IMG/VR virus record: IMGVR_UViG_3300045988_170943
Span: 288,001-352,000 of that record
Reading direction: 5' to 3' (one strand)
Length of the DNA stretch: 64,000 nt
Origin: a virus
Shown here: in pieces, positions 4,187 to 53,511 of the stretch
Layout of the letters: the number at the start of each line of letters is the position of its first letter
Position numbering within the stretch: position 1 is the first letter of the stretch
Translations under genes and position numbers: made by a program
Notes under the pieces: model-generated
What the model saw: the letters and a program-made list of their open reading frames with translations, nothing else
What the model was told of the DNA's origin: nothing
Databases searched by the model: none

Positions 4187-5260
4187 ATGTACACAACAGT
4201 AGGCGCCCTAGCGGCAGGCTACATCATCGGCATGCCCACTCTCATGGCCTTGTTCCTATTCGCCCACAACCGGCTCGTCACCGAGAAGAAGATAGAGCGA
4301 GCCACCCTCAAGAAAAAGAAGGGCACCCTTAAAGACTCCAGCAAAGACCCATCCAACATCGTCCCCCTGTCCGTCACTATCTGGGAACGACTCAACTTCC
4401 TCCTCAAAGAGGACACGCGACTACTAAGGTCAGGAAGCAAGAAGGACGACAACCAGGACGGCAAGGACGAGAAGGTGCCAGAGAGCGGCATCACCAACAA
4501 GCAAGCGTTTTTCGGGATCCTCACTGCTGGACTCATCATGTTCGTCTCACCTGCATTCGGTGCCACATGGTGGATGCTCGCCGCCGGAGGATTCACATTC
4601 TACAGTGCTATCGGGTTCGCCTCATCCACCGCAAAACCCATCATGGAGGCCCGCAAGAAAGCCATCACCAAGATGGTCAACATCGCCAAGTCCAAACTCG
4701 GCAACACGGAAACCAACCCCAGTGAGATCGTCACCGTCCTAGAATGGGATCAACTTGTCAAACCACTAAGGCTTACGTTCACGATCCCGCACACGTTCAA
4801 CGGGGAAATGGGAGAAGACGCATTCCTCCGACAGTTCAACCAGGGGTTCGGGCAGGTGCGCACATTCGTCCCAGACAACCGCGACCCACAGAAACCAGGC
4901 TGGGACTACGACCAGGACATTCTCACCCTGTACGCCGTACCCCCACTACCAGTCATCGCACCATTCAGCGAGCACTACGTCATCGGGGAAGCAATCGCCA
5001 AGTCATTCATCCCCATCGGACTGGGTATCGACGGTGGCCTGGAACTACCAAACCCTGAGACCGGGGAGATTGAGCACGTCATCGGGTTCGACCTAGCCGG
5101 TGAGCAGAAAGCCCTCGCAGACAAGTACGGAATCAAGGTCGCAGAAAACATCTCTGGCGCATCCCCACAGGGCCTCGTCGCCGGACCCACAGGTGGAGGC
5201 AAGTCACTGTCCATCGACACTCCCGTCCTTGTTCGTGTCCCTAAGAAACCGGTTGCGTGA
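4187..5260 (+). CDS. membrane protein, unknown function
   Basis: 357-aa ORF with several hydrophobic helices near N-terminus. Confidence 0.5.
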   Translation: MYTTVGALAAGYIIGMPTLMALFLFAHNRLVTEKKIERATLKKKKGTLKDSSKDPSNIVPLSVTIWERLNFLLKEDTRLLRSGSKKDDNQDGKDEKVPESGITNKQAFFGILTAGLIMFVSPAFGATWWMLAAGGFTFYSAIGFASSTAKPIMEARKKAITKMVNIAKSKLGNTETNPSEIVTVLEWDQLVKPLRLTFTIPHTFNGEMGEDAFLRQFNQGFGQVRTFVPDNRDPQKPGWDYDQDILTLYAVPPLPVIAPFSEHYVIGEAIAKSFIPIGLGIDGGLELPNPETGEIEHVIGFDLAGEQKALADKYGIKVAENISGASPQGLVAGPTGGGKSLSIDTPVLVRVPKKPVA

Positions 5261-5296
5261 CACGTTTTCAGGCGATATAATGCCAGTAGGCCGCAA

Positions 5297-5572
5297 TTGG
5301 TGACAAACAGCACGAAGGAAACAGACATGCCCACATACGAGGAACGCCTAGCATCCATGAAGGCACAGCGTCAGGAAAACGGTGGAGTAAAAGGCCTCTA
5401 CCACGCCAACATCAACGTACTCGACCGAAACACTCTTGAGGACGCTATGAAGCATCCAGAGAACTACCCGAACCTCACTGTCCGCGTCAGTGGCTATGCC
5501 GTCAACTTCGTCAAACTAACCCATGAGCAACAGTTAGACGTCCTCCGCCGCACCTTCCACTCCCAGGCCTGA
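5297..5572 (+). CDS. grcA: autonomous glycyl-radical cofactor (GrcA/YfiD-like, PFL C-terminal domain)
   Basis: [48 protein letters not shown] closely matches GrcA/PFL glycyl-radical motif RVSGYAV and flanking residues. Confidence 0.8.
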
Positions 5573-5832
5573 ACCTAACCACACCTCAAGACCGGAACGC
5601 TCCTGCATCTTGGTGGACACCCGAACAAGCCCCATGAGTGCCCAAAGGCGGCAGTATCCTACCGTATCCTCTGAATGACAAACGTGAAGCATGCCAGCAC
5701 TGAAATCAATCAGGCGGCATGCTTCGTCATCTCACCAGGGGTACCCTGCTCAGGTTCCTCTACCACCACAAGGACGCTCCGCACCCTAGACGCAACCGCC
5801 CTATTCGCGCACAGGAAGTGAACCCACCTAAC

Positions 5833-6351
5833 ATGACCAGGTACATCGGGTACAGTAGATTCGACATCGCCAACGGCCCTGGCATTCGCGTATCCATCTT
5901 CCTGTCCGGGTGCTCATTCAAATGCAAAGGGTGCTGGTCCGCCACCGCCCAGAACCCACGCATGGGAGACCTCTTCACGACAGACATCATCAGAATGGTG
6001 CTCGACGACTGTGCGCAAACAGGCATCGCCGGGCTCTCCATCCTTGGTGGTGAACCCTTCGAGAACACTGACGCCACCAGGGAACTCGTGCGAGCATTCC
6101 GGGCCAAGTTCGGGAACACTAAAACTATCTGGGTCTGGTCAGGGTTCTACCTGCACGAGATACTAGCAGACTCCAGAAAGGTAGCCATCCTCAAAGACGT
6201 GGACGTACTCGTTGACGGCAGATTTATCCTGGAACAGCGAGACACCAGCCTCAGGTTCCGTGGGTCACGCAACCAGTCAGTGCTTGACGCCCCACGATCC
6301 ATCCGGGCCAGTGAAGCCGTCTGGTGGGAAGGAATCAAACCCGGCCAGTGA
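5833..6351 (+). CDS. nrdG: anaerobic ribonucleotide reductase activating protein (radical SAM, NrdG family)
   Basis: DIANGPGIRVSIFLSGCSFKCKGCW (CxxxCxxC), IWVWSGF, VLVDGRF, LRFRGSRNQ match NrdG; in-frame upstream start at 5719 is possible. Confidence 0.8.
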   Translation: MTRYIGYSRFDIANGPGIRVSIFLSGCSFKCKGCWSATAQNPRMGDLFTTDIIRMVLDDCAQTGIAGLSILGGEPFENTDATRELVRAFRAKFGNTKTIWVWSGFYLHEILADSRKVAILKDVDVLVDGRFILEQRDTSLRFRGSRNQSVLDAPRSIRASEAVWWEGIKPGQ

Positions 6352-6436: not shown

Positions 6437-6649
6437 ATGGCAAAGAAGTATGTTCACCTCAGCCCGAAGACGAATCAAATGGAGGAATGTGTAGGCCCAG
6501 ACAGGTGCAAATACAGGAACCAGAACGTCCCGCACGCTGAGGCTGGAGACACCGCCCGCATCGCCGACATCATGGCAAAGGCACACTCCAACGGGACATG
6601 TTCGGCACCTCAAGCACAAACAACAAGGACAAAGACTCTGAAGCACTAG
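6437..6649 (+). CDS. small Cys-containing protein, hypothetical
   Basis: 70-aa ORF with RBS ggagagaacggatcATG; overlaps next ORF. Confidence 0.25.
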   Translation: MAKKYVHLSPKTNQMEECVGPDRCKYRNQNVPHAEAGDTARIADIMAKAHSNGTCSAPQAQTTRTKTLKH

Positions 6650-7752
6650 CAAGGGTTAAGAAGATCAGGAAAGACCGCGGAGTCAGCACCCCCACAGAAG
6701 GGCACCTGGCAGAAGGACTGGACCGCAACGGAGACTTCAAAGTCAGTTTCCCGCCAACCAGTATCGGCTCCCAGTTCTCCATCGACACCTTTGAAGGGGA
6801 AACCCAGTACACCGTCACAGGACCCAAGGGGTACGACCAGATAGTCGCTGAAGACAGCACCGGCGAGAAACGCATCTTCAACCGTTCAGACTACGGCCCA
6901 TACGTCATAACCAGTGTCCTGAACACGGTGGCTGCACACAATGAAGCCATCCAGGGTGCGCGAGGGTACAGGCTACGTCAGGCCAAGAGCCTCAGAGACA
7001 GTCAGCGCACGTACATGAAAAAGGCGATCAGGGACGCAAGTTTCGATGAAGGTGGCGCAGCACATGGTGGCCTCAACGCCAACAGCATCAAATACGACCC
7101 GAACACTGACACCATAACAATGCATGTCTCCAGGGACGACCACCCCAGGAGGGCGGCAGCCGTCGTGACAGTAGACCGCGCTGGTGACGCCGTGATCAAG
7201 AACGCTATCGACGGCACGCTAGAAAGCGTCCTCAAGAAGAAGGGCGTCAGACAGGAAATGCGTCGCATGTACGAGAGAGAAAGGGATGTGGCTGTCGCCC
7301 AGAACCGGTACGACCGGCTCCCCTATGTGCGCATGACAAACTACCCCGCCCACATCGACGAGTTCATTGACAGCGATGTCGAGTCATTCAGACGTGAGAA
7401 GGAAAACCGCCTCAACATCGCTAAAGCCCGAGTCCGGGACGTCCTCACCGACGAAGACAGTATGAGCACATTCAAGATAGGTAAGGACAACAAGGGTATC
7501 TTTGTCGTAAAGACAGACAAGGTGACAGGAGACACGGCCAGCGGATATATCCAGGTCGGAGAAGACGGAAGATTCAACGGCCTGGAAGAGTACAACAAGG
7601 ATCACAAGGCCACCAAAAAACTACTCACCTCAAGCCTGAGCAGGGTAGCCCCAGCGGACCTGAAAGAACTCGCTGACTCCTACAACGCACCAGACGTCAC
7701 CAAGGAAGACCTCGAAAGGTACTACCCACCAAAGAGGACCAGCAAGAAGTGA
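6598..7752 (+). CDS. hypothetical protein
   Basis: 384-aa ORF followed by rho-independent terminator; true start may be downstream. Confidence 0.5.
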   Translation: MFGTSSTNNKDKDSEALARVKKIRKDRGVSTPTEGHLAEGLDRNGDFKVSFPPTSIGSQFSIDTFEGETQYTVTGPKGYDQIVAEDSTGEKRIFNRSDYGPYVITSVLNTVAAHNEAIQGARGYRLRQAKSLRDSQRTYMKKAIRDASFDEGGAAHGGLNANSIKYDPNTDTITMHVSRDDHPRRAAAVVTVDRAGDAVIKNAIDGTLESVLKKKGVRQEMRRMYERERDVAVAQNRYDRLPYVRMTNYPAHIDEFIDSDVESFRREKENRLNIAKARVRDVLTDEDSMSTFKIGKDNKGIFVVKTDKVTGDTASGYIQVGEDGRFNGLEEYNKDHKATKKLLTSSLSRVAPADLKELADSYNAPDVTKEDLERYYPPKRTSKK

Positions 7753-9765: not shown

Positions 9766-10509
9766 TTGAGTCAACCAGTCACCCCCACCGATCAGACCGC
9801 AGAAGACCCAGGTGACCTCACCCAGCACATGGGCGCCCACTCGGGTAAGGTCCTCCAAGAGGACGACAACTACACCTATGAGTTGAGGTGTTTCGGCGAC
9901 CTTCAGGAAGGGGATGAGGTTGTAACCACTGGTGGAGAGTGGCAGCAGGTCGCCAGAGCCTACCCTGAGCACATACCAGTGTCCATGTATGAGGTCGAGG
10001 TGGGTGGTACCGTCATGCAGGTGTCTGGGAACCACCTGTTCTATGTGGAGTCCGACCTGGACCGTCAGTTGCACGCCAGCAGACTCAAGACGTCCGCGAA
10101 GACGATCCAGAAGCACTTGTCTCAGAAGGTGTTGGACGACCTGTGGGAGATCGTCAACGATGACAGCGGCTACGAGATCGAGATGCTTCTATCTGATATG
10201 GTGAACCTCCTGGAAGTGTCAGGGAACCTTGAAGTTGAGAACATCATCACCAGGGTCGCTGAGAGCATCGGCCCTATCAGTGAGGTCAACGTGGTCCCAG
10301 AGGACGTTGAGACCGGCCGTCGCGGCAGCGGAAGAAAGGTCGCCGGGTACGATGGGAGACGGTTCGCGCAGCAATTTCTGTCCCTGACCGGGATCCGCAA
10401 GTACCGAAAAAGGTGGCCTGTCATTGTCGGCAGGGTCGTCACCACTGAGGAGATGCTGAACCTTATGGAGTCGTTCAACGTACACCTACCAAACCCACCC
10501 AAACACTAG
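9766..10509 (+). CDS. hypothetical protein with possible Hint (intein/hedgehog-like) fold
   Basis: CFGDLQEGDEVVTTGGEWQQV ... VSGNHLFYV resembles Hint block A and TxxH block B; weak. Confidence 0.45.
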   Translation: MSQPVTPTDQTAEDPGDLTQHMGAHSGKVLQEDDNYTYELRCFGDLQEGDEVVTTGGEWQQVARAYPEHIPVSMYEVEVGGTVMQVSGNHLFYVESDLDRQLHASRLKTSAKTIQKHLSQKVLDDLWEIVNDDSGYEIEMLLSDMVNLLEVSGNLEVENIITRVAESIGPISEVNVVPEDVETGRRGSGRKVAGYDGRRFAQQFLSLTGIRKYRKRWPVIVGRVVTTEEMLNLMESFNVHLPNPPKH

Positions 10510-12476: not shown

Positions 12477-15338
12477 ATGTCAACCAAACGAGACGGAGAA
12501 CACATGAGAGAACACGACCCCAAGGTACTTGTGTCTCCGCCTCGCGCGTCCAGGATTCTTCGCCCGCTCATCAATGCCACCGAAGAGAAGGACATTGAGC
12601 ACGCATGGCGGACCCTTCTGGAGGACGGCCTCAAGAAAGCCGTGAAACAGGACGGCGGAACAATCGGCGACGGGTTCGTGTCCACCATCGGTGACGTCAA
12701 GACTGACGGATACATGACCGTCACCACCCCCACAGGCAATTACGGTGTGTTGCTGGAGACGAAGATCAGGAAGGCTCTCACTGGCCCCACCAACACGGAC
12801 ACCAGGGCCAAGATCCTCACCCAGGTCACATACTATGTCCACAATCTCTCAGCGGAGGCTAAACCATCACCGAAAGTCATTATCGTCGCTGATGAGGACG
12901 AGGTGTTTCTCCTGGATGGGGACCTACTGACACCACTCGCTAACCAGACGTGGGATGATGACCCTAAATGGGAAGCAACCCCGTCCAGGGGCTATGACGT
13001 CAACACAGGGCTCTACAACCACCTGAGGAACCTTCAAACCGTGGCTGCCATGCCAGTCTATGAGGTCACCAACCCAAGCGAGGGTGTGGTCCTGAATGCA
13101 GACACGTTCATCAAGGCTGTTCACACCATGGGACAAGGCGGCACCTGTGAGATCATGCGCCATAAGGTTACTGTACGGGACCTGGAGAAAGAGTTTCAAC
13201 GGTTCCACCTGAGCGTGTTCTCAGGTGTCACGGGCCGGGGCGCCTCCAAAAGGCAGATGGCCGTGTTCACCAAGACAATTCTCGGTGATGACACCATTAA
13301 GGTGAAGGACTCTCGCCGCAACACCTGCACTATCACCACGAGTGACGGGAAGACCCTGACTGTGAACGCCATGGATGGGTTCAACGCCTTGGAGTACGAG
13401 ACGTGGCGGCAGGAGCATGCTTGTGGTGCATACACCCCCCAGGAGCGACAGGACATCACCTCCATCTGCGACCGGCTACTGGAGGATGCGGAGCGGCGCT
13501 GGACCGGAGAGTTTTGGACTCCTGAGATCTGGGCTGACCGTATGCGCATCATGGTAGCAGACCACCTAGGAGAGGACTGGACCAGCAAGTACGTCATCTG
13601 GGACCCTGCCTGTGGCTCCAAGAACCTCACCCAAGGGGCAACTTTCGGGCAGCAACAGAAGAATGAGAACCTATACCTTTCAACCCTGTTCAGTGAGGAA
13701 CTGAGTATCGCTGAGGGCATCAACCTGGGCGCGACGGTCTTCCAGCACGACTTCCTCAACGACCCACTGGAGCCCCCTGCAAGCCCCACAGAGCCCACAG
13801 GGGTACCCCAGGCAGGTTACGACACGTGCAGTATGCCACAGCCTAGCACGAGCCTCCAGAACAGCCCACAGGGTGCGACGGCAGGGTTACCGGCGGGCCT
13901 CCTGAATGCACTCAAAGCCAACAAGCCTATCATCATCATCGGTAACCCTCCCTATGGGACCAGCGGAGACCCCAGGAGCAGCAACAAAACCGGGGTAGCC
14001 GACACCACCACCCGCCGCTCCATGATTCACGCCAACGCCGGAGGTCACGCCGCACAAGAACTCTACGCCCAGTTCTACTACCGTGCCGCCCAGATCGCAA
14101 GACACTACGGGTACACCAGCGACTTCCACATCGTTTTCTTCTCCAAGGTGTTCATGACCTCACCCGCACACGAGAAGTTCCTGACCAACCTCACCAGCGA
14201 CTTCACCTACCGAGGCGGGTTCATGCTCAACTCCGGCGAGTTCAACGGGGCCAGCCGGAAGTTCCCCATCATCTGCTCCCACTGGGCACTCGACACTACA
14301 CCAAGCCATGAGCCACAGGTAAGTTTCGATGTGCAAGTCCTCAAGACACAGAAAACCAGGACCGACGTCACAATCACTGACGCGGGAACCAGAACCATCC
14401 GACACGTACAAGATCACGAACGCCTGTCCAAGATGATTCCCGCCCCCACCGGCGACCACATGGAATACGGCACCTACCCTGTAACCAGCAACGGCTTCCA
14501 TGACACCAACAGCACCAGCCCCATACGGGGAAGGTGGGCGCATGGGGCACTCGGATACCTCCAGAAACGCGACAGCGTGGGCGGATCCTACCTCCGAACC
14601 TCCATGCTCACCACAGCCCGCAGACACGGGGATGGCATCATTGTTGACCCAGGGAACTTCACTGAGGCGTGCATGATAATGGGCGTACTCAAGGCCGCGT
14701 TCCTGCACATCCGCGCCAACAAGGAACTCTGGGTGCGAGACAAAGACATCTTCACCCGCCTGCCTGAGCAGTGGACCCGCACCCCCGGCTACAAGACCTT
14801 CCAAACAGACGCAGTGATCTACTCCCTGTTCACAACCGGTAGTTACCAAACCTCACTCGGCAACTACCAGTCACAAGACCAGCAGTGGGACATCCGAAAC
14901 CAGTTCTTCCCTCTCACCAGCCATTTCATGCAGGACATTGCCAGCCGCAACCTCGACGACGGCGGCCACGAAATCCTCCAAGCCATGCAGGAAGACCACC
15001 AGGACCGGTACGCCGCCACATGGATCCAAAAGCAGGAGAAGGCAGGCCACCTCACTTCTGAAGCCAAGGATCTTCTGAACACGTGGTCCAAGATCATCGA
15101 AGCGTCCTTCAAGTACCGGATCATCTACGCCAACACACCCAGAAGAACCGAACAGGGGCTAGAACGCTGGGACGCCGGGTTCATGCAGATTCACCGAATG
15201 TGCCGCAGCGACGACAGGTTCCTCCTCGACGCCAAGATCGACAAGAAGTTACAGGCGCTCTGGGATGACTTCGACCAACAGTATGCCGCAATGGGAGAAA
15301 GAATCTGGGACACGTATACCCAACATGCAGGGTTCTAA
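12477..15338 (+). CDS. gamma-class N6-adenine DNA methyltransferase, 953 aa, MmeI-like single-chain Type IIL/IIG architecture (possible N-terminal PD-ExK nuclease)
   Basis: motif I VIWDPACGSKN then motif IV IIIGNPPYGTSGD (order I then IV means gamma class); N-terminal D...VLLETKIRK possible D-ExK; large C-terminal region could be a target-recognition domain. Confidence 0.7.
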   Translation: MSTKRDGEHMREHDPKVLVSPPRASRILRPLINATEEKDIEHAWRTLLEDGLKKAVKQDGGTIGDGFVSTIGDVKTDGYMTVTTPTGNYGVLLETKIRKALTGPTNTDTRAKILTQVTYYVHNLSAEAKPSPKVIIVADEDEVFLLDGDLLTPLANQTWDDDPKWEATPSRGYDVNTGLYNHLRNLQTVAAMPVYEVTNPSEGVVLNADTFIKAVHTMGQGGTCEIMRHKVTVRDLEKEFQRFHLSVFSGVTGRGASKRQMAVFTKTILGDDTIKVKDSRRNTCTITTSDGKTLTVNAMDGFNALEYETWRQEHACGAYTPQERQDITSICDRLLEDAERRWTGEFWTPEIWADRMRIMVADHLGEDWTSKYVIWDPACGSKNLTQGATFGQQQKNENLYLSTLFSEELSIAEGINLGATVFQHDFLNDPLEPPASPTEPTGVPQAGYDTCSMPQPSTSLQNSPQGATAGLPAGLLNALKANKPIIIIGNPPYGTSGDPRSSNKTGVADTTTRRSMIHANAGGHAAQELYAQFYYRAAQIARHYGYTSDFHIVFFSKVFMTSPAHEKFLTNLTSDFTYRGGFMLNSGEFNGASRKFPIICSHWALDTTPSHEPQVSFDVQVLKTQKTRTDVTITDAGTRTIRHVQDHERLSKMIPAPTGDHMEYGTYPVTSNGFHDTNSTSPIRGRWAHGALGYLQKRDSVGGSYLRTSMLTTARRHGDGIIVDPGNFTEACMIMGVLKAAFLHIRANKELWVRDKDIFTRLPEQWTRTPGYKTFQTDAVIYSLFTTGSYQTSLGNYQSQDQQWDIRNQFFPLTSHFMQDIASRNLDDGGHEILQAMQEDHQDRYAATWIQKQEKAGHLTSEAKDLLNTWSKIIEASFKYRIIYANTPRRTEQGLERWDAGFMQIHRMCRSDDRFLLDAKIDKKLQALWDDFDQQYAAMGERIWDTYTQHAGF

Positions 15339-15508
15339 TCCCATCAGCCGCACCCTCTTCCTGCCTGCAACCACAAGTCGCCTCTAATCGGCTTTACTGG
15401 CGCACATCACACCACACGTACCAGAGGGGGCCTTGACTCAACTAGGCCCCACTGGTACCATCTGGAGCAGATTGCCAGCAATAGGGCACCCAAGAAAGGA
15501 ACACTGGG

Positions 15509-23713: not shown

Positions 23714-26083
23714 TTGCAGGTGCCTCTTATGTTCGAGACCTACCACAGGATGAAGAACACAGTCGATGTGTCGTTCGACGACTTCTTCACTGACTCCCCG
23801 GTCCACGTCACCAAAGGTGAACCTAAACCCAGGCGAACCCTGTCAATGGTCGCAAAGAACCTGGGTGTCTTCATGCTCGTCGCGGCCCTGTGCGGGACCC
23901 TCACCTCAGTGTGGCCGATCCTCGCGCTCAGCCAGGGGGTACAAGCCGCAGAACCAATCGCTGAGTACTGGAAGTCCCTGCCAGAGAACCTGGAAGACAT
24001 CGAGATCGGGCAGAAGAACACGCTACTCGACATCAACGGCACCCCATACGCTGAAGTATGGTCAGAGAACAGAACCACCCTCACCTCACTGGACCAGGTG
24101 AGCGACTACGCAAAAAAGGGCTTGATCGCAACCGAAGACAAGGACTTCTACAAGCACAAGGGCTTCAGCCTGAAAGGTACAGCGCGAGCAGCAATGTCCA
24201 GTTCCGGTGGAGGATCCGGCATCACCCAACAGTTAGTGAAAAACCTCCAGTTCTTCAACCTAGCCGGTCGAGACAAGAAAGACCAGGCCGTCGAAGCCAC
24301 CATCGGCCGCAAGGTACGCGAACTCAAACTGGCACTAGGCTACGAGAAGAAGCACACCAAGAACGAAATCCTGCTCACCTATTTCAACACCGTAGCGTTC
24401 GGCGGCCCCAACACGTACAGCATCGAGACCGCCGCCCAATACTACTTCGGGAAGCCAGCCAAGGACCTCGACCTGGCAGAGTCAGCAGTCCTCGTCGGAA
24501 GCGTCCAGAACCCCAGTCGCTTCAACCTAGACAACACCGAGGACAGCAAGACCAACTACAAGGCCCGCCAAAAAGATGTGCTCGACAGGATGGTCACAGA
24601 GGGTTACATCACCCAAGCCGACGCAGATAAGGCATATGGTGAGGAACTGAACCTCGTCTACAAGTCAACCTCCAACGGCAACTGCACCTCCAGCAGATAC
24701 CCCTACTACTGCGAGTATGTCATGGGCTACCTGTCCAAGTCACCGAAACTAGGGGAGACACAGGAAGAGCGAGACGCCATCCTCCGCAAGGGCGGCCTCC
24801 AGATACACACCTACCTAGACCCCAACGCTATGGGGATCGTGGACGCGCAACTCAAACAGGACTACGGAACAGACAACCACCTGGCCGCCCCTACCGCTGT
24901 CGTCCAACCAGGCACAGGAGGCGTACTCGCAATGGGATCCAACCGCGACTACGGGACCGGCCCAGGACAGACCACCGTCAACCTGCCCTTACATGCCACT
25001 GGCACCGGGTCCGTCTACAAAATGATCACACTCGCTGCCGCACTCCACGAAGGCTATACCGAGTCCGACCTAGCGTTCTCATCCCGATGCCCCCTCGTCG
25101 ATTCACGCTACGACACCCCAGACGGCGGAATCACCAACTCCGACTCCTGCTCCCTCCAGGGAGGTTACATGGACTACCGGACCGCCACAGCCCTATCCTC
25201 CAACACATGGTTCAGCGAGTTGGAGATCAAGGTCGGTGTCGAGAAGGTCAAGGAGTTCAGCGCCAGTGTCGGACTGTCCGCACCCGACAACATCACCTCC
25301 CGGTCCCTGGCCTACACGCTGGGTGTCACAGAGAACTCAGAGGTAGCGATGGCGGCAGCATTCGCAACATTCTCCAACGGCGGCATCTACTGCCCTCCCA
25401 GCCCCGTCTCTACGTTCTCTTACGCAGACGGCACCTCACCCGTTGTCCCAGACACCTATGACCCCAAGACAGACTCCTGCCGCCGTGTCCTGTCAGAGAA
25501 GGACAGCGGCGTGGTCCTCAAGGCTATGCGAGCCAACGTCAGCGGCGAGATCCCCAACGCTTTCGGGAACAAGTTCAACACATCAGGGTACACGACCGTA
25601 GCCAAGTCTGGCACCAACCAACTTTACAACTCCACGTGGGCTGTCTTGTCCGGCAACTTCAGTGTCTTCAGCAACATCTATGACCCTGTAGACTTCACTG
25701 AGGGCATGGACCCAACAACATACCGTGGCAGCCAGTACCGGTGGTGGGACCACGTGATCGGATACACGGGCCGCGACATCATGACCTCACTGCTGAACAC
25801 GGAAGGATACAAGCCCCTAAAGTTTGACAGCAGTGACGACACCATGACCGAGGTGTCCGTTGAGTCCAGGGACTTCGTAACCATCCCCTCCGTGATTGGT
25901 ATGGAACCGGCGCAAGCGATGGCGACGCTCAACTCGCTAGGGTTCCCTGCCCACCTGAGTAAGGAGAAGAAGCCAGCACCAGACGGTTACCAGTCTGGGG
26001 TGATTGTTGAGCAGAACCTCACCCCTGGCACCCAGTTGCCGGTCGGAAGTAAGAAGGAGATCATCATCTACCAGTCCAAGTAG
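23714..26083 (+). CDS. class A penicillin-binding protein (GT51 transglycosylase + transpeptidase) with C-terminal PASTA domain
   Basis: N-terminal TM; GT51 motifs EDKDFYKHKG and GITQQLVKN; transpeptidase SVYK (SxxK), SSN, KSG; C-terminal PASTA-like IPSVIGMEPAQAMATLNSLGF. Confidence 0.8.
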   Translation: MQVPLMFETYHRMKNTVDVSFDDFFTDSPVHVTKGEPKPRRTLSMVAKNLGVFMLVAALCGTLTSVWPILALSQGVQAAEPIAEYWKSLPENLEDIEIGQKNTLLDINGTPYAEVWSENRTTLTSLDQVSDYAKKGLIATEDKDFYKHKGFSLKGTARAAMSSSGGGSGITQQLVKNLQFFNLAGRDKKDQAVEATIGRKVRELKLALGYEKKHTKNEILLTYFNTVAFGGPNTYSIETAAQYYFGKPAKDLDLAESAVLVGSVQNPSRFNLDNTEDSKTNYKARQKDVLDRMVTEGYITQADADKAYGEELNLVYKSTSNGNCTSSRYPYYCEYVMGYLSKSPKLGETQEERDAILRKGGLQIHTYLDPNAMGIVDAQLKQDYGTDNHLAAPTAVVQPGTGGVLAMGSNRDYGTGPGQTTVNLPLHATGTGSVYKMITLAAALHEGYTESDLAFSSRCPLVDSRYDTPDGGITNSDSCSLQGGYMDYRTATALSSNTWFSELEIKVGVEKVKEFSASVGLSAPDNITSRSLAYTLGVTENSEVAMAAAFATFSNGGIYCPPSPVSTFSYADGTSPVVPDTYDPKTDSCRRVLSEKDSGVVLKAMRANVSGEIPNAFGNKFNTSGYTTVAKSGTNQLYNSTWAVLSGNFSVFSNIYDPVDFTEGMDPTTYRGSQYRWWDHVIGYTGRDIMTSLLNTEGYKPLKFDSSDDTMTEVSVESRDFVTIPSVIGMEPAQAMATLNSLGFPAHLSKEKKPAPDGYQSGVIVEQNLTPGTQLPVGSKKEIIIYQSK

Positions 26084-36635: not shown

Positions 36636-38816
36636 TTGACCGCAGAAGCAAACAACAACCTCGACTACGACGAGACCCCCCGCGAGCCCGCCCTCGACTA
36701 CCACGCCCTCAACGCTAAACTGAACCTCGTCGGAGACGACGGCAAACTTCAGTTAGACGCCGACCATGAGGCGGCCAGGCAGTTCTTCCTCCAGCACGTC
36801 AACCACAACACCGTATACTTTGACGACCTGGAAAAAAAGATAGACTATCTCATCACCAACCACTACTACGAACGCGAGTTCATCGAACAGTACGACTGGG
36901 CATTCGTCAAAGACCTGTACAAGCGAGCCTACTCCTACAAGTTCCGATTCCCCACCTTCATGGGCGCCTTCAAGTACTACTCCTCCTACACGCTCAAAAC
37001 CTTCGATGGCAAACGCTACCTGGAGCGATACGAAGACCGAGTAGTCGCCAACGCCCTCTACCTCGGGCGTGGAGACCAAGAACTAGCCACCAGCATTCTC
37101 GATGAGATCATGACTGGCCGCTACCAGCCCGCCACCCCCACCTTCCTTAACGCCGGGAAAGCACAACGTGGCGAACTAGTGTCGTGCTTCCTAACCAGGG
37201 TGGAAGACAACCTGGAATCCATCAGCCGTGCCATTACAAACGCCCTACAACTGTCCAAACGAGGCGGCGGAGTAGCCCTCCTACTCACCAACATTCGTGA
37301 AACCGGTGCACCCATCAAGCGCATCGAGAACCAGTCCAGCGGAATCGTGCCTGTCATGAAACTACTGGAGGACTCATTCTCCTATGCCAACCAGTTAGGT
37401 GCCCGCCAAGGAGCAGGAGCCGTCTACCTCAGCGCCCACCACCCCGACATCATGAAGTTCCTCGACACCAAGCGAGAGAACGCCGACGAGAAGATCCGCA
37501 TCAAGACCCTCTCTCTGGGTGTCGTTATCCCAGACATCACCTTCGAGTTGGCTAAGAACAACGACGACATGTACCTGTTCAGCCCCTATGATGTCGAACG
37601 AGTCTACGGCACACCCATGTCAGACATCTCGATCACCGAGAAGTACCGCGAGATGGTGGAGAACCCGGATATCAGGAAGACCAAGATCAAGGCCCGACGG
37701 CTCTTCCAGGTCATCGCAGAGATCTCAATGGAGTCAGGATACCCCTATCTTCTGTTCGAGGACACCGCTACCAAGGCGAACCCTCTAAACGGGCGCATCA
37801 ACATGTCCAACCTCTGTAGCGAGATACTTCAGGTAAATGAGGCATCCGAGTACCATCCTAATGGTTCTTACAGTCACGTTGGCAAGGATATCTCCTGCAA
37901 CCTAGGCAGTCTGAACATCGCCAAGACGTTCGACAGCCCAGACTTCGCCAAAACCATCGAAACCGGAATCCGGGCACTCACATCCGTCAGTGACCTATCC
38001 AACATCGATGCTGTACCATCAGTTGAAAACGGAAACCACAGCACCCACAGCATTGGACTCGGAATGATGAACCTACACGGGTTCCTCGCACGCGAACATA
38101 TCCACTATGACTCTCCTGAGGCGGTAGAGTTCGCCGGACTGTTCGCATATGCATTCAACTACTGGTCTATTGTCGCATCAAACAAGATCGCAAAAGAAAC
38201 AGGACAGGTATTTGACGGGTTCGACACCAGCGAATACGCTAACGGCACCTATTTCAATAAATACATTGAGAAGAACTGGAGACACACCACCTCACCCAAA
38301 ATCTCGGCACTGCTAGGAAGAAGTAGCATCTACTTGCCTACACAAGCCGACTGGGAGAAATTAAAGAATGACGTGATGGAGAATGGACTATATAATGGGT
38401 ATCGCCTATGCATCCCCCCAACGGGGAGCATCAGTTACCTGAATTATTCCACCGCATCAATTCACCCAATCATCTCTCCAATTGAAATTAGAAAGGAAGG
38501 AAAGTTGGGTCGAGTTTATGCCCCAGCACCCTATCTTTCTGATGACACTCTGCCTTTCTATCGTGATGCGTACAAGATTGGCCCTGAGGCAATCATCGAC
38601 ATCTATGCGGCCATGACCCCACACATCGACCAGGGTTTGAGCCTCACATTGTTCTGGCCGGACACTGCAACCACGCGAGACATGAACAAGGCGTACATCT
38701 ATGCATGGCGCAAGGGGATCAAGACAATCTACTATGCCCGCATCCGCCAACTGGCTCTTGAAGGCACTCAGGTAGAGGGTACTGCCGCCGGGTACTGCGA
38801 GTCCTGCCAGTTGTGA
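36636..38816 (+). CDS. nrdE: ribonucleoside-diphosphate reductase alpha subunit (class Ib NrdE-like)
   Basis: [34 protein letters not shown], catalytic NxCSEI, C-terminal CESC; TTG start. Confidence 0.85.
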
Positions 38817-39673: not shown

Positions 39674-40306
39674 TTGTCTGGTAGTGGTTCTAGTGCAGTG
39701 ACGCCTGGGCGGGCACGTAAGCGTAGCCGTGGGCTGGATGCTGCGACTTGGGGCGTGGTTCGACGTGCCCTGGTTATTGTTGGTGCTACTGTGGCTGCGG
39801 TAACTGCTGTGTCCTTGATCCTTCTGGCGGCCGTCCCGGCTTTTGGTGTGTCGGTGTGGACTGTTCTGGGATCGTCGATGGAACCCACCCTGGATGATGG
39901 GTCCATAGTGGCTGTCCGCAACAGTGACAGGCCGATCCAGCACGGCGAGATCGTGGTGGTTGGCAAACCGGAGTCCTGGTATCGTGAGGGGAAGGACGCA
40001 TCTAGTCACCGCGACGTACTGGTGAAGCGAGTGGCGGCTGTCCCTGGTGATACCTTGGAGGTCGTGGGTGGTGAGATCCTGGTGAATGGCGCGGTGATCT
40101 ACTCCTTGAAGGAGTCAGGGTACCCATGTCCGGCTGTGACTGGTGACTACAGGCACACGTTGGGGGACAGTGAAGTGATGGTGCTGGGTGACAATGCGTT
40201 CTTTTCTCTGGACTCACGTAAGGTGATGTGCACGATGGGCACTGGCGGCATGTTCGTGGATGCGAGGCAGGTTCGGGCTCACGGTAGGATCCTAGCGAGC
40301 ACCTGA
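39674..40306 (+). CDS. type I signal peptidase (S26 family)
   Basis: TM helix then GSSMEPTL (Ser box) and VKRVAAVPGDTL (Lys box); TTG start. Confidence 0.7.
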   Translation: MSGSGSSAVTPGRARKRSRGLDAATWGVVRRALVIVGATVAAVTAVSLILLAAVPAFGVSVWTVLGSSMEPTLDDGSIVAVRNSDRPIQHGEIVVVGKPESWYREGKDASSHRDVLVKRVAAVPGDTLEVVGGEILVNGAVIYSLKESGYPCPAVTGDYRHTLGDSEVMVLGDNAFFSLDSRKVMCTMGTGGMFVDARQVRAHGRILAST

Positions 40307-40410: not shown

Positions 40411-41409
40411 ATGAGTGACAGTGGCGGCAGTGTTAGTAGCACCCATGGTTTGCGTGTCGCTTTGGTCCTAGATAAGTCTGAGACGTGGGTGCGGTTCAAA
40501 CGCGACGAGGTACTGGCCTCATGGGGCGTGGCTGGTGGCGAAGTGGAGTACACGGACAGTGTTGCCACTGCTGGCGTCACTAACATGTTCGGTGACGTGA
40601 TCACACCTGTGGTACACCTGAAGGATGCGACCCATGCGAAACGCATCTTAGGTGAACTGGAAGGTTTGTGGGACTTGGGCGTGAGTGCCAGCGTGCTGAT
40701 CGTTGGTACGGTTGCCAGAAACTCCACGAAACGCCTGGAGAAAATGGTGGCAGATCTTGGCGGTAGCGTTCATCTGGCGAGACAGAACAGTCGGGACAAG
40801 ACAAACCCCGCCAGCGAAGTGATCGACGCCCTGCACGTGTCTCAAGAGGTGAAAACCTTCCTTCGTGACTACGCGGGGGATGACTACTCCCTGATCCTGG
40901 GTGTCGCACGGTCATTGTCCACGTTGACGCCGCAGCAACAGGCACGTATCGGCCTGGAAGATGTGGCTATCCGCTTACCGAAGGCTCCTGGTGCTGTACC
41001 TCCATGGGAGATCGACAAGCCTCTGTTCATTCAGCCTGACCCAGACCGCACGGTGAAGATGTTTCGGCGTATCATTGTGCACACGCATCATCTGGTCGTT
41101 CTGTTGCTGTTGAAGGCGAAGTTGCAGACCGCGCATCTCTCGCTCAGGTTGAAGTTGTTGGGGATGACGCAGCCCACTGATATCGCTGACGCGCTTGGGG
41201 TGGCGAACAACTACCAGTTCAAGGCCGCCACCCAGTTGGGGGACCGCCTGGGCGTAGCACTCACCAAGAGGCTGCTGGATGAGGTGTTGGAGGTGGAGGC
41301 TCAAGTGAAGGGTGGCTCCAGGATTGATGGTAACGCTTTGGTAGAGATGGCTTTGTTGCGTATATGTCTGTTGGTAAAGCATCACATGGAGCATACTGGT
41401 CAGAGGTGA
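40411..41409 (+). CDS. hypothetical protein; possible DNA polymerase III delta (HolA)-like clamp-loader subunit
   Basis: 332 aa; size and NMFGDVITPVVHL motif reminiscent of delta; weak. Confidence 0.3.
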   Translation: MSDSGGSVSSTHGLRVALVLDKSETWVRFKRDEVLASWGVAGGEVEYTDSVATAGVTNMFGDVITPVVHLKDATHAKRILGELEGLWDLGVSASVLIVGTVARNSTKRLEKMVADLGGSVHLARQNSRDKTNPASEVIDALHVSQEVKTFLRDYAGDDYSLILGVARSLSTLTPQQQARIGLEDVAIRLPKAPGAVPPWEIDKPLFIQPDPDRTVKMFRRIIVHTHHLVVLLLLKAKLQTAHLSLRLKLLGMTQPTDIADALGVANNYQFKAATQLGDRLGVALTKRLLDEVLEVEAQVKGGSRIDGNALVEMALLRICLLVKHHMEHTGQR

Positions 41410-43365: not shown

Positions 43366-44844
43366 ATGACCAGCAATGACAATGCATCCTCGTTGCCGGA
43401 CCTGGAACTGCCTGCCCCGGCACCCACGGGCTCGGACCCGGAGGCAGCCTCCACAGGGATTGACGCCCAGGGCGAAGCACGGAGCGCAGTAGACGGAGAC
43501 GTGTCGGTCACTCCACAAAACGCGCTGGCCGACATGGTTGCTGACACCCAGGAGCATGGCGACTATGACGAGCCAATGTCACCATCCAAGGTTGCCAACG
43601 TCATTAAGAACATTCGTCACGAGGAATCCACCGCAGAGTCCCAAGGCCACAGCGGTCAGACGGGAGGCCCTGGCCTGGATGTCGATACGGACGAAGATTT
43701 CAGTGAGCCTGATCTTCCTCCCTTGGATTTGGACGGTGGCGAGTCTGAAATGAACTTTCAGGGTGGCGAGAGTGATGTTGACTCAGATGCTACCGCGGTC
43801 ATCGACGCCGTGGAGGGTGCTGACAGTTCCGCTGAGGGCCGAAAGGGTGGCAGGCTGAAGCAAGCCATGGTCGAGTCCCGTGTGGCCGCCAGGAAGGCTG
43901 AGAGGCGCGCTCGTGCTGTCCGGGCTGTTTCCGTCGTCGCTGGCGGGATTCTCTTGGTTGGGGTTGCTGGTGGGGCGGGCTACTGGGGGTGGCTGAAGTG
44001 GCGCAGTGGCGTGGCCAGCGTGCCGTCCGCCGTCACCAGGATCAACGTGACTGACGCCTCTCTGGATCCGTGCAAGACATTCGTTGACGAGGGCCTGAAG
44101 TGCAAGGCTACTTGGCAGATCAAGGATGGCACCAAGCGTGGCGAACTCATCAGTCAGTCTATCAGTGCTGGTCAGAATGTCCCGAAGGGGTCGGGTGTCA
44201 ACCTTGTATACTCCAACGGGCCGGAGACCACCAAGATGCCCAACGTCGTCGGCATGCCTTTGGATCAGGCGAAGCAAGCCATCTACGAGGTGGGTGTGGA
44301 TGTCTCTGAGGTTAACGTGGTGGAGAAACCGGGGGTCAGTGAGAACACAGTCACCTCCTCCTCCATCCAGGCCGGTGCTGAGGTGACGAACGGCAACGGC
44401 GTGAACCTGGAGGTCGCTAACGGAAAGGTTGGCATCCCTGACTGGACCGGCAAGACTAAGGACTTCGTGGAGCAGGACGCCAAGAAGCACGGCATCAAGG
44501 TCAAGTACTTGGAGGAGGACTCAGACAAGACTCCCGGCACAGTCCTGTCACAGTCTCCAAAGGCTACAGAGAGTGCCCCCACGAACGAGGTGCAGGTGAC
44601 CATTGCCCGCTCCGCCAAGGCCAGTGACATCAGCGTCCCGGATGTTGTGGGTAAGAGCGAGCAGGAGGCTCAATCCACACTGGCTACCGCTGGACTCAGA
44701 AAGATCAGCACAGTCAAGGTTCCGAACTGTGCCGTGTCCTCTTCTCAAGTGACGCAGACGATCCCGGCGGCGGGAGGTTCAGTGAAGTCGGATGCGGACG
44801 TGACGATTATCGTGTCCGACCCTGACGCCAGTTGCAGCAAGTGA
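43366..44844 (+). CDS. membrane-anchored protein with acidic cytoplasmic N-terminus and 3-4 extracellular PASTA-like repeats
   Basis: single TM (VVAGGILLVGVAGGAGYWGW) then repeats resembling PASTA (MPNVVGMPLDQAKQAI..., VPDVVGKSEQEAQSTLATAGL...). Confidence 0.6.
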   Translation: MTSNDNASSLPDLELPAPAPTGSDPEAASTGIDAQGEARSAVDGDVSVTPQNALADMVADTQEHGDYDEPMSPSKVANVIKNIRHEESTAESQGHSGQTGGPGLDVDTDEDFSEPDLPPLDLDGGESEMNFQGGESDVDSDATAVIDAVEGADSSAEGRKGGRLKQAMVESRVAARKAERRARAVRAVSVVAGGILLVGVAGGAGYWGWLKWRSGVASVPSAVTRINVTDASLDPCKTFVDEGLKCKATWQIKDGTKRGELISQSISAGQNVPKGSGVNLVYSNGPETTKMPNVVGMPLDQAKQAIYEVGVDVSEVNVVEKPGVSENTVTSSSIQAGAEVTNGNGVNLEVANGKVGIPDWTGKTKDFVEQDAKKHGIKVKYLEEDSDKTPGTVLSQSPKATESAPTNEVQVTIARSAKASDISVPDVVGKSEQEAQSTLATAGLRKISTVKVPNCAVSSSQVTQTIPAAGGSVKSDADVTIIVSDPDASCSK

Positions 44845-45127: not shown

Positions 45128-46237
45128 ATGACACCTCACTACAGCAAGACCAAGCACACCAGTAAGATCCTCATCGGTTCGGTACTCGCAGCCGTCACCA
45201 TGGCCGGAACCTCTGGGGGAGTCGCAGTAGCAGCCTCCCTCGACGAAACCCCAACAAACAACAACACGGGGGCACAGGACACCCACTCCAGCGACAGCAA
45301 GGGTGGCGCACACAAGTCCACCTACCGGGCTACCATCTTTCTCACCACCCAAGGCGACCTCACCCCAGTCACCATCGACAGTGACACCACTACCGTTAAC
45401 GAAGCCATCGCCGCGTCCGGCCACAACCTCGCCGACTACCGCACCATCGACGGCAACAAGGTAGACGGCAACCGCACCCTCACAAACGGCGAGCACCTAG
45501 CCCTCCTCCAAGCCGAAACCAGCACCGCCACCAGCGAGAACATCAGCATCCCCGCACCAGAGACCACCAAGGAGTCCCCAGACCTCCTCGTCGGCGAGAC
45601 CAAGGTGGAATCTGAAGGCAAGGCCGGGCAGGCCATCAAGACCGTCGTCACCACCAAGGACGAGAAGACCGGCAAGACCACCAGCAAGGAATCATTGGCC
45701 GTCACCGCCGCCCCGCAAGCCAAAGTCACCCTCATCGGCACCAAGAAACCCTCCACAGACAACACTGAGACCACCTCCACCAGTGACACCAACACGGGCG
45801 CACAGTACATCGGCCGCCACGTAGCCAACCCCAGCAGCAGCGACAGCAACTCCAACGCGGCCACCGCGAAAGCCGTAGCCTCCAACCTCGCTGACGGAGC
45901 CAAGGCAGCAGAGATCGCCAAGGCACAGGTCGGCAAACCCTATATGTGGGGATCCGCTGGACCGAACGCCTTCGACTGCTCCGGCCTCATCTACTACGCA
46001 TTCGGAACCCAGTTGGGGTACAACATCCCCCGCACAGCCTCCGACATCGGCCACTCCTCCACTCCCATTTCCAAGAGCGACCTTCAGGTAGGGGACATCC
46101 TCTACACAGAGACCCACATTGGCATCTACGTCGGGAATGGGCAGGTAGTTCACGCCGCCACTGAAAACACTGGAGTCGTCTACGACAGCATTAACGGCTA
46201 CTTCTCATCCTTCCAGGCAGGGCGACTCACCCGGTGA
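45128..46237 (+). CDS. secreted cell-wall hydrolase: G5 domain + NlpC/P60 peptidase
   Basis: signal peptide; G5-like ETKVESEGKAGQAIKTVVTT; NlpC/P60 catalytic region YMWGSAGPNAFDCSGLIYYAF...HIGIYVGNGQVVHA. Confidence 0.75.
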   Translation: MTPHYSKTKHTSKILIGSVLAAVTMAGTSGGVAVAASLDETPTNNNTGAQDTHSSDSKGGAHKSTYRATIFLTTQGDLTPVTIDSDTTTVNEAIAASGHNLADYRTIDGNKVDGNRTLTNGEHLALLQAETSTATSENISIPAPETTKESPDLLVGETKVESEGKAGQAIKTVVTTKDEKTGKTTSKESLAVTAAPQAKVTLIGTKKPSTDNTETTSTSDTNTGAQYIGRHVANPSSSDSNSNAATAKAVASNLADGAKAAEIAKAQVGKPYMWGSAGPNAFDCSGLIYYAFGTQLGYNIPRTASDIGHSSTPISKSDLQVGDILYTETHIGIYVGNGQVVHAATENTGVVYDSINGYFSSFQAGRLTR

Positions 46238-48465: not shown

Positions 48466-49389
48466 ATGACACGACCACGAGGAAAACACGTCAAGGAAAC
48501 CAGGCGCACAAGCAAGCCCATACGACACCTGATTCCACCCCTCATCGCATCAACCGCTATACTCAACCCAGGCGCGACAGCAGCAGCCTACCAGCCAAGC
48601 GGCCAGCAGGACGTCCCAGGGATCCCCTCCGGCCTCTCAGACAGCATCACTGACCTGTCTACGACTGACACCAAAGCCATCCCCTACCCGACCCGTGTCG
48701 TCGAGGACAAGGGGCTACCAGCAGGCATTGAAGTCGTCATCCAAGAAGGCAGGGACGGGGTACTCAAGACCGTCACAGGGTTCAGGCAGGCGGCAGGAAC
48801 AGGGGGCACCCAACACAACTCCAGGGTCAGACACACCTACATCGACACCCCCGCCACAGAGAAAGTCATCCGCAAAGGCACCAAGACTGAGGTCATCGAA
48901 GGGGTAGCAGACAAGGTAGTGCAGGCCGAAGCCAAGATCGCGGAGCAGAAAAAAGCAGAGGAAGCCACCCAAGCCAAACGGGACGTGGAGCAGCAGGCAC
49001 AGGCCACTGCGGCACCAACCAGCCTTGACAACAGTGCCGCCGCCCAAAACAACAGCAGTGACAGTGGCTCCACCACGCCGCCCCCAGCAAATCAGGCGAC
49101 CGGAACGAAGACCGACTGGATGCGTGCCGCCGGAATAGCCGAGTCGGACTGGCCCTATGTGGACTACATCATCAGCCACGAGTCCGGGTGGAACCCCAAC
49201 GCCGTCAACGCATCCAGTGGCGCTCACGGCCTACCACAGGCCCTACCAGGAGGGAAGATGGCGTCAGCCGGTGAGGACTGGGCCACCAACCCTGTCACCC
49301 AGTTAAAGTGGGCCAGCGGGTACGCAGTCGGCCGATACGGATCCTGGGCCGCCGCCTACAACGCATGGCGGTCACAGAACTGGTGGTAG
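48466..49389 (+). CDS. secreted G5-domain protein with C-terminal lysozyme-like/transglycosylase domain
   Basis: signal/TM; G5-like RVVEDKGLPAGIEVVIQEGRDGV; C-terminal IISHESGWNPNAVNASSGAHGLPQ resembles the SLT/transglycosylase catalytic ES...GLxQ motif. Confidence 0.55.
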   Translation: MTRPRGKHVKETRRTSKPIRHLIPPLIASTAILNPGATAAAYQPSGQQDVPGIPSGLSDSITDLSTTDTKAIPYPTRVVEDKGLPAGIEVVIQEGRDGVLKTVTGFRQAAGTGGTQHNSRVRHTYIDTPATEKVIRKGTKTEVIEGVADKVVQAEAKIAEQKKAEEATQAKRDVEQQAQATAAPTSLDNSAAAQNNSSDSGSTTPPPANQATGTKTDWMRAAGIAESDWPYVDYIISHESGWNPNAVNASSGAHGLPQALPGGKMASAGEDWATNPVTQLKWASGYAVGRYGSWAAAYNAWRSQNWW

Positions 49390-53298: not shown

Positions 53299-53371
53299 CG
53301 GCGTGTAGCGCAGTTTGGTAGCGCACCTGTTTCGGGAACAGGGGCCACAGGTTCAAATCCTGTTACGCCGA
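53299..53371 (+). tRNA. tRNA-Pro (CGG)
   Basis: manual cloverleaf: acceptor cggcgtg/tacgccg, anticodon loop ttCGGga, T-loop ttcaaat. Confidence 0.7.
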
Positions 53372-53425
53372 CGACGAGAACACTAAAAGGCGTCAACAAG
53401 CATGACAACAAGTGCTCTCACAAAT

Positions 53426-53510
53426 GTCACGGTAAAGCGTAACTGGTAGCGCGCCGGTCTGTAAAACCGGTCTGAAAGGTCTGTGGGTTCAAGTCCCACC
53501 CGTGGCACCA
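53426..53510 (+). tRNA. tRNA-Tyr (GTA), type II, CCA encoded
   Basis: anticodon loop ctGTAaa, long variable arm, T-loop ttcaagt, 3' CCA. Confidence 0.7.
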
Positions 53511-53511
53511 T

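Follow-up and report, generated by a model that had tools for sequence, protein, structure and literature searches.

Two small glycyl-radical proteins, YfiD of E. coli and Y06I of bacteriophage T4, are the only validated spare parts of pyruvate formate-lyase (PFL), and both restore PFL after activation by the PFL-activating enzyme PFL-AE (PMC8683613; PMC13450708). Behind the spare-part work on YfiD and Y06I stands the study of Wagner et al. (2001), as cited in the same two papers. The T4-like and T5-like phages are among the groups reported to carry genes of the class III ribonucleotide reductase (RNR) (PMC3653736). Genes for GrcA-like proteins are common in phages: we find 1,581 records with one, the majority from phages of Escherichia, Salmonella, and Klebsiella. 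Here we describe a related gene, grcA2, and the neighboring activase gene nrdG on a stretch of 64,000 nt (positions 288,001 to 352,000 of the IMG/VR virus record IMGVR_UViG_3300045988_170943), called the window below. A phage-borne GrcA has been known since T4 Y06I, and the locus is a variation on this known practice of T4; what is new is that the PFL of the donor is naturally split and that the copy apparently comes from an oral Actinomyces. An earlier note on this DNA had interpreted the pair as a replacement glycyl-radical module supplied together with its own activase. One half of this interpretation is upheld, in that GrcA2 most likely serves the PFL of the host, but NrdG has an NrdD partner in related elements and is present in sister elements without grcA2. 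The explanation that we favor, and regard as reasonably probable, is that grcA2 and nrdG are two separate, metabolically linked anaerobic auxiliary genes and not a self-contained spare part with activase, GrcA2 serving the split PFL of the host and NrdG serving the NrdD of the element itself.

The longest open reading frame (ORF) of grcA2 runs from a TTG start at 5297 to 5572 on the (+) strand and encodes the radical motif RVSGYAV, as had been reported. The reported length of 91 amino acids (aa) has to be corrected: bacterial homologues begin with MATYEERL and a GAAGGA sequence is located 8-13 nt upstream of ATG 5327, so that the true start is almost certainly this ATG, giving a protein of 81 aa. 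The RVSGY-type loop and the C-terminal helix are thus contained in a protein of ~80 aa with a short N-terminal lead, which aligns with residues 696-756 of E. coli PFL and 66-124 of YfiD. The protein scores above the cutoff of the NCBIfam model NF008341, "autonomous glycyl radical cofactor GrcA2" (162.7 bits versus 145, E 1.5e-48; positions 2-79 of the 80-position profile are matched by residues 3-80), close to the reference GrcA2 from Trueperella (165.6 bits), and it matches the Pfam domain Gly_radical with E 1e-17 (profile positions 65-106 of 106). It fails both the GrcA/YfiD model TIGR04365, spare_glycyl (86.3 bits versus a cutoff of 170, profile positions 59-124 of 126 only), and the GrcA3 model (97.9 bits versus 158). 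No NrdD family appears among its Pfam and NCBIfam profile matches, in agreement with the earlier assignment of the small protein to the PFL/GrcA type and not to the C-terminus of NrdD.

In its general design the locus resembles that of T4, where Y06I is likewise a small free-standing C-terminal radical domain of PFL in a large phage with genes for both NrdD and NrdG, and a PFL-restoring role would be expected here as well. There are also differences from Y06I and YfiD. The window protein belongs to the GrcA2 family and not to the GrcA equivalog family, is ~54-58% identical to the proteins of the enterobacterial phages, and has a lead of ~20 residues in place of the ~60 residues (an N-terminal half that is disordered) in GrcA. 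Its presumed partner is a PflB that never held a radical domain, and not a full-length PFL cleaved by oxygen. In family, length, start, and radical motif it agrees with the bacterial GrcA2 proteins of Actinomycetaceae, Corynebacterium, and Propionibacteriaceae, whereas its surroundings are those of a phage-like element: the typical bacterial context, with a truncated pflB before grcA2 and pflA after it, is replaced by a P-loop gene on one side and nrdG on the other. Apart from the weak radical-SAM match of nrdG, no similarity to PflB or PflA was detected in the window.

The closest GrcA2 is that of Actinomyces naeslundii NCTC 10301, 93% identical over all 81 residues (~6/81 differences), followed by A. 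gaoshouyii (91%), other Actinomyces (90-92%), and Schaalia and Trueperella (78-84%; 73-84% with Corynebacterium included). At the nucleotide level the phage gene is 84% identical to the grcA2 gene of A. naeslundii; the similarity stops right at the borders of the ORF, with no remnants of host pflB or pflA around the phage gene, and the synonymous-site GC content of the phage copy is lower. These comparisons indicate that the grcA2 gene of the element is derived from a host, an oral Actinomyces.

In Trueperella pyogenes and on Actinomyces-type contigs the gene stands in the order pflB-grcA2-pflA. The PflB of Trueperella (696 aa) spans only positions 1-676 of the 744 positions of TIGR01255 and aligns with residues 8-691 of E. 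coli PFL; GrcA2 takes up positions 680-744 of the same model. PFL is split in this way in 35 of 80 genome loci, where pflB ends at residue 693-696 (690 in the odd locus L090), grcA2 starts 18-129 nt after pflB in 33 of the 35, and pflA comes next in 34 of the 35. In 41 of the 80 loci the same sequence forms the C-terminus of a single ORF of ~790 aa; these fused enzymes are from Bifidobacterium, Gardnerella, Cellulomonas, Streptomyces, proteobacteria, and a few Corynebacterium and Brachybacterium. Thus the last ~65 residues of PFL, including the glycyl radical, are made in the Actinomyces lineage as a separate protein of 82 aa. The alignments indicate that GrcA2 is the product of a fission of the PFL gene at the equivalent of E. 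coli residue ~695, and that in the donor lineage it is most likely an obligatory subunit and not an optional spare. The earlier reading had missed that the PFL of this lineage is split by nature and that GrcA2 is its C-terminal domain, encoded by a gene of its own. Actinomyces, Trueperella, and Corynebacterium apparently run their primary fermentation on a two-piece PFL, of which we found no description in the searched literature; the name GrcA2 was found in no paper, and a combined search on PFL, the glycyl radical, and Actinomyces gave nothing relevant. The function of the bacterial GrcA2 family is accordingly proposed here from annotation and context analysis. As to its taxonomic spread, the split form (PflB of ~696-708 aa with GrcA2 of 82 aa) was seen in Actinomyces, Schaalia, Trueperella, many Corynebacterium, Propionibacterium, Dermabacter, and Brevibacterium (loci L004-L006, L030-L032, L034-L071).

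At the very same boundary, the Drennan laboratory has engineered the construct tPFL(1-695) of the E. coli enzyme, which in combination with YfiD is catalytically competent and fully active once activated (PMC8683613). The natural fission of PFL at the boundary of the engineered tPFL makes the two-piece enzyme a candidate natural system for studying how a detachable radical domain is recognized and activated.

The second gene encodes an activase of the NrdG family, as the earlier note had proposed, and not of the PflA family. Its longest ORF is 5719-6351, and the start at 5833 follows homologues and gene calls in relatives. NrdG scores 148.5 bits on TIGR02491 (cutoff 126.1; residues 4-152 on profile positions 2-152 of 154) and matches PHROG 626, "anaerobic RNR small subunit" (E 1.5e-44), and the Pfam domains Fer4_12 (E 5e-43) and Radical_SAM (E 2e-7). 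On the PflA model TIGR02493 it reaches only 36.5 bits, with a cutoff of 231.75, compared with 297.6 bits for the host PflA, to which it is 26% identical over 156 residues; moreover, it has 172 aa and PflA ~240-300 aa. The CxxxCxxC cluster (CSFKCKGC) and, near the N-terminus, a glycine-rich ANGPGIR can be read in the translation. NrdG is 95% identical to its counterparts in close relatives, 62-68% to those in sister elements at the same syntenic position, and at most 49% to everything else, the best named cellular matches being from Firmicutes; in the PDB no sequence relative was found at E<0.01.

The absence of NrdD from the window, noted earlier, is borne out by a domain scan of the window ORFs of at least 490 aa and by tblastn with six phage NrdDs (T4, an Enterococcus phage, and four metagenomic ones), which gave nothing in the window at E<0.1. 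In the control loci L023 and L025-L027, by contrast, these queries do detect an nrdD, located immediately upstream of nrdG. The glycyl-radical motif, searched for in all ORFs of the window and of its flanks (14 kb on the upstream side and 10 kb on the downstream side), was found in GrcA2 only. A hidden divergent glycyl-radical enzyme near nrdG was considered and dropped: the motif scan gave nothing besides GrcA2, and two large ORFs gave no matches either (Pfam and PHROG for the 953-aa ORF, PHROG for the 565-aa ORF). The 10 kb upstream of the window encode two large proteins of no assigned function and no NrdD. The catalytic subunit that is present, the aerobic NrdE of the earlier note, is the large subunit of a class Ib RNR (36636-38816, (+) strand); no NrdF was seen among the window ORFs of at least 150 aa, the ORF 40411-41409 having only a weak match to the delta subunit of DNA polymerase III, and the NrdF partner may lie elsewhere, as is the case with nrdD.

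Downstream, the contig L119 is 100% identical to the window over 60560-64000 and extends 9.8 kb beyond it, with genes for Ro60, dCMP deaminase, and MazG. A protein of L119 was used to retrieve the IMG/VR loci L122-L124, and L119 is collinear with L122 and L133. A complete NrdD ORF of 659-662 aa is present in four relatives (L122, L123, L124, and L133), which are 88-92% identical in nucleotide sequence to the window lineage across this region; three of them, L122, L123, and L124, share contigs of 201, 394, and 248 kb with the grcA2-nrdG loci L018, L020, and L021, respectively. These NrdDs score 862 bits on NF006732 (cutoff 657) and 545 bits on TIGR02487 (cutoff 326). By collinearity, nrdD is expected 4.1 kb past the end of L119, that is, ~13.9 kb past the window and, on the same strand as nrdG, ~72-73 kb downstream of that gene. 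Since this distance exceeds the 64 kb of the window, the latter shows nrdG alone, and the "activase without reductase" results from the position of the window's edge. An NrdD elsewhere in the genome, which the earlier note had named as its fallback, is therefore what the four relatives display, ~14 kb past the window. The possibility that the small ORF is the C-terminal exon of a split nrdD is rejected, the NrdDs of the relatives being complete, with a radical motif (ERLCGYLG) and a zinc ribbon (CYKC...CPQC) of their own.

The NrdD of the relatives is 45-46% identical to that of T4 and 49% to that of an Enterococcus phage, and it resembles the T4 enzyme in its zinc ribbon, its CGYLG radical motif, the lack of an ATP cone, and its thiyl loop (VSPMGCRSFL), which is identical to that of T4; a bottom-face cysteine is present as well. 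The nearest outside relative of NrdG (P0132, 47%) is encoded directly downstream of a 612-aa NrdD on L132, and this NrdD is, judging by its length and the size of its contig, P0356, the 54%-identical outside match of the NrdD considered here. NrdG and NrdD thus share their nearest outside relatives, an adjacent nrdD-nrdG pair, and are therefore a cognate pair that has been separated in this element. In other phages the distance is much smaller: the two genes are adjacent in L023, L025-L027, and L132, and ~10 kb apart in Enterococcus phage A2. The latter was examined as a possible case of an orphan nrdG and rejected on account of that nrdD at 10 kb; it shows that a separated pair is no peculiarity of this element. 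Longer NrdDs occur in related elements, 1,034 aa in P0334 and P0336 and 812-829 aa in P0299-P0338; those of 1,034 aa contain an intein, because homing-endonuclease/LAGLIDADG domains are found in them. On NrdD in Actinomyces the literature gave nothing specific beyond a general enrichment in host-associated Actinobacteria.

The order of events at the locus can be traced through the sister elements L013 and L014, where the stop of the P-loop gene abuts the start of nrdG and grcA2 is absent. Both share the order 699-aa protein, 562-aa protein, single-stranded DNA-binding protein (SSB), 348-aa protein, P-loop protein, and NrdG; nrdG thus stands in a conserved synteny without grcA2, and therefore grcA2 was inserted beside a pre-existing nrdG. 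The inserted piece of ~570 nt comprises grcA2, a box resembling a -10 promoter element, and a strong hairpin in the spacer between the two genes (Table 1). The -10-like hexamer is possibly the own promoter of the inserted gene, judging from its sequence and position; a consensus promoter scan, which also requires a -35 hexamer, gave no call there. RNA folding of the spacer (5573-5832) yields -74.9 kcal/mol with z = -2.3, the hairpin is kept in the centroid structure, and its sequence is conserved in the relative L008. A terminator scan did not call it, and from its fold it could possibly be a terminator, an attenuator, or an mRNA-stabilizing element brought in by the insertion.

Table 1. Coordinates of the features at the grcA2-nrdG locus (positions of the window)
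Feature	Position	Strand	Description
P-loop gene, upstream flank of the insertion	4187-5260	+	357 aa, no Pfam/PHROG match; marks the insertion point, not a glycyl-radical function
TATAAT, -10-like hexamer	5276-5281	+	Sequence reading; 46-51 nt upstream of the grcA2 start
grcA2	5327-5572	+	81-aa autonomous glycyl-radical protein; PFL C-terminal radical domain (RVSGYAV) behind a lead of ~20 aa
Hairpin in the 260-nt grcA2-nrdG spacer	5675-5730	+	RNA folding; no U-tract
nrdG	5833-6351	+	172-aa radical-SAM (S-adenosylmethionine) activase of class III RNR

The grcA2-nrdG adjacency is conserved in all close relatives whose contig spans both genes, and this observation is the starting point of an alternative in which NrdG, alone or besides NrdD, arms the phage GrcA2, the host PFL is re-armed without the host PflA, and the two genes are neighbors because their products work together. 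GrcA2 carries the only glycyl-radical motif of the searched span, an insertion exactly upstream of nrdG among several hundred genes is by our estimate unlikely to have occurred by chance, and pflA and pflB were found in no inspected part of the element. We nevertheless consider this alternative unlikely. A cognate NrdD for the activase is encoded by the element itself, the activase is conserved in sister elements that have no grcA2 at the locus, and it falls far short of the PflA model. Besides, it is the PFL activase of the host that activates YfiD and T4 Y06I, the two validated spare parts; the host operon has pflA right beside grcA2; in the T4-like and T5-like phages (one of each examined) grcA lies far from nrdG, in contrast to the adjacency seen here; and in the element itself grcA2 and nrdG are set apart by the strong hairpin and by what may be a promoter of their own. 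In its narrower form, NrdG would have a dual specificity and, besides activating NrdD, would put a radical on the adjoining GrcA2, re-arming the two-piece PFL independently of the host PflA. This we regard as quite improbable; were it true, NrdG would be the first enzyme of its type known to act on a radical domain of the PFL type, and the fixation of grcA2 at exactly this spot would be explained.

The exact adjacency may reflect selection for co-expression, or it may reflect the plasticity of the region. L013 contains a gene for a TnpB/Cas12f-like protein (514 aa, L013 6157-7701) between the genes for SSB and the 348-aa protein, a few kb upstream of nrdG; the region therefore tolerates insertions. 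Downstream of nrdG the genes vary between lineages. In the window, the gene which in relatives follows nrdG and encodes a 438-aa protein (e.g., L008 10604-11920) is frameshifted into ORFs of 70 aa (6437-6649) and 384 aa (6598-7752, (+) strand), being either a pseudogene or the result of a sequence error. On the other side of the insertion, the 357-aa protein ends in a Walker-A P-loop (GLVAGPTGGGKS, GPTGGGKS) followed by only 17 residues. This ending is kept in relatives and sister elements, with the remaining ATPase domain nowhere nearby. A split intein, composed of the end of the P-loop gene ("S-LSIDTPVLV") and a Hint-looking protein of 247 aa (9766-10509), was tried and discarded, as neither part, alone or joined, has a Pfam intein or Hint match at E<1.

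Such a variable region, with its TnpB-like insertion, its differing genes after nrdG, and its frameshifted next gene, would also suit a grcA2 that is a functionless chance passenger, adjacent to nrdG by coincidence. The substitution pattern speaks against this: both grcA2 and nrdG are real genes under purifying selection, with dN/dS (the ratio of nonsynonymous to synonymous substitution rates) of 0.04-0.05 for grcA2 (over dS of 0.2-0.4) and 0.16-0.22 for nrdG (dS 0.12-0.15) among variants of the element. In addition, grcA2 is intact in all relatives examined and has a good ribosome-binding site and the -10-like box, so that a passenger is very unlikely. The dS of grcA2 among the variants (0.21-0.41) is 2-3 times that of the adjoining nrdG, which may be noise in a gene of 246 nt or may reflect repeated exchange with host alleles.

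A further possibility is that GrcA2 acts against the host, as a competitor that fills the PflB core or soaks up PflA and so shuts down or redirects fermentation; with ~6 of 81 residues differing from the host protein, a foreign small subunit could in principle poison a two-piece enzyme. However, neither the radical motif nor any of the structured part has been lost, and dN/dS relative to the host genes is 0.05-0.07, the pattern of a protein that keeps its host function. T4 Y06I restores PFL activity, and the formate-type NrdD of the element would itself gain from an active PFL. We find an anti-host role extremely unlikely.

Returning to the explanation with two separate auxiliary genes, the comparisons above show the gene identities, the host origin of grcA2, the split PFL of the host, the presence and type of nrdD in the relatives, and the insertion next to a pre-existing nrdG; the docking of GrcA2 on the host PflB, its activation by the host PflA, and the formate link are what we infer from them. 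GrcA2 made by the element would dock on the PflB core of the host and receive its radical from the host PflA, a step modeled on T4 Y06I and on the host operon. By analogy, GrcA2-PflB binding and activation by PflA are presumably also what takes place in Actinomyces itself. The phage GrcA2 would replace subunits that were destroyed by oxygen or are no longer made by the host, and the conversion of pyruvate into acetyl-CoA plus formate would be maintained. NrdG, for its part, would activate the NrdD of the element. The NrdD of the E. coli/T4 type uses formate as reductant, and PFL is the source of formate in the cell; the PFL kept alive by GrcA2 may therefore feed formate to the NrdG-activated NrdD. 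That grcA2 and a formate-type NrdD occur together suggests a supply of formate by PFL to the anaerobic synthesis of deoxynucleotides during infection, and the same link may also explain the presence of grcA in T4-like and T5-like phages.

Several points weigh against this explanation. The predicted formate dependence of the NrdD of the element is read from one loop motif, the Met-Gly-Cys loop that it has in common with the E. coli/T4 type. This nrdD is seen in relatives only; the sequence of the window strain reaches 9.8 kb beyond the window and would have to extend another 4.1 kb to arrive at the expected gene. E. coli tPFL(1-695) with YfiD is activated 32-fold worse than oxygen-cleaved PFL with YfiD (PMC8683613), and therefore the natural split system must work somewhat differently. 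Finally, only one glycyl-radical activase gene was seen in ~115 kb, and grcA2 was inserted exactly beside it; chance explains this poorly, which leaves room for a direct functional tie.

If the explanation holds, an element that copies only the 81-aa consumable subunit of an enzyme, under strong purifying selection, illustrates cleanly how an auxiliary gene can be directed at that part of a host enzyme which is most sensitive to oxygen. Cyanophages carry psbA, a gene of host origin for D1; in the enzyme of host energy metabolism to which it belongs, D1 is the subunit most prone to damage and with the fastest turnover, and the phage copy keeps the enzyme running during infection. The analogy is one of working only: the proteins and their chemistry are unrelated, and the damage is caused by light in that case and by oxygen acting on the glycyl radical in the case considered here.

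The element itself has 55% G+C in the window, with nearly all genes on the (+) strand, and encodes SSB, RecA, DnaB, RecG, helicases of the Pif1 and SNF2 types, NrdE, and a sliding-clamp homologue. No close relatives were found among 50,697 phage records, either by megablast with pieces of 4-8 kb or by tblastn with RecA. Relatives with ~94% nucleotide identity come from the Human Microbiome Project and other metagenomes and from IMG/VR contigs of 97-394 kb. The relatives bearing NrdD reach 415-539 kb, and each of the five IMG/VR contigs with nrdG has one copy of it. The genome of the element may thus exceed 390 kb. No capsid, portal, terminase, or tail genes were seen in the ~115 kb inspected, most of the genome being outside that span, and for this reason the label "phage" rests on the IMG/VR classification and on features resembling those of huge phages.

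These observations have a bearing on one more alternative, namely that the element is a giant plasmid-like or temperate resident and not a lytic phage, and that grcA2 and the class III RNR are long-term fitness genes in dental plaque with its fluctuating oxygen, grcA2 providing extra dosage of the consumable PFL subunit. The lack of virion genes in the inspected part, the relatives on contigs of 200-540 kb, the many envelope genes, a weak TrbL/VirB6-like match, and a DNA polymerase III replicase of its own are consistent with such a resident. On the other hand, IMG/VR lists the relatives as viral genomes, the structural genes may lie in the uninspected majority of the genome, and the TrbL match is under the Pfam cutoff. 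Moreover, the 31 tRNAs, the CCA-adding enzyme, the Ro60 homologue, the homing endonucleases among the tRNAs, and the near-uniform gene orientation are typical of huge phages. We judge the resident not likely, though worth keeping in view; the element may be a megaphage or a giant element of another kind.

Among the other genes, the load of host-like envelope genes is unusual: a PBP1A-type transglycosylase/transpeptidase with a PASTA domain (23714-26083), a signal peptidase (39674-40306), a protein with four PASTA domains (43366-44844), a G5-NlpC/P60 hydrolase (45128-46237), and a G5-SLT (Rpf-like) transglycosylase (48466-49389). The TrbL/VirB6-like match, at 22 bits versus a Pfam cutoff of 25.9, belongs to a protein of 1,053 aa encoded upstream of the window (L115 4739-7900). 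A scan of positions 1-53000 with Rfam gave nothing at the gathering threshold, and no repeated intergenic motif was found.

The replication genes of the relatives include one for a 498-aa protein (L122 12750-14246, L133 6222-7718) that matches only the N-terminal ~400 residues of the alpha subunit of DNA polymerase III, which comprise the PHP domain and the beginning of the polymerase domain; the protein is followed by DnaX, which suggests a split or truncated DnaE in a replicase belonging to the element. The 31 tRNA genes are packed into 8.4 kb (53299-61734) and interspersed with two genes resembling GIY-YIG homing endonucleases (57442-58155 and 58737-59366); the gene for the CCA-adding enzyme (62251-63774) follows the cluster, and that for the Ro60/TROVE homologue lies just past the window (L119 4046-5638). 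Far from this cluster, a 29-nt sequence resembling the T-arm and acceptor of a tRNA, GGGTTCTAATCCCATCAGCCGCACC (15330-15358, (+) strand), overlaps the stop of the 953-aa ORF and could be a remnant resembling an integration site or a chance match.

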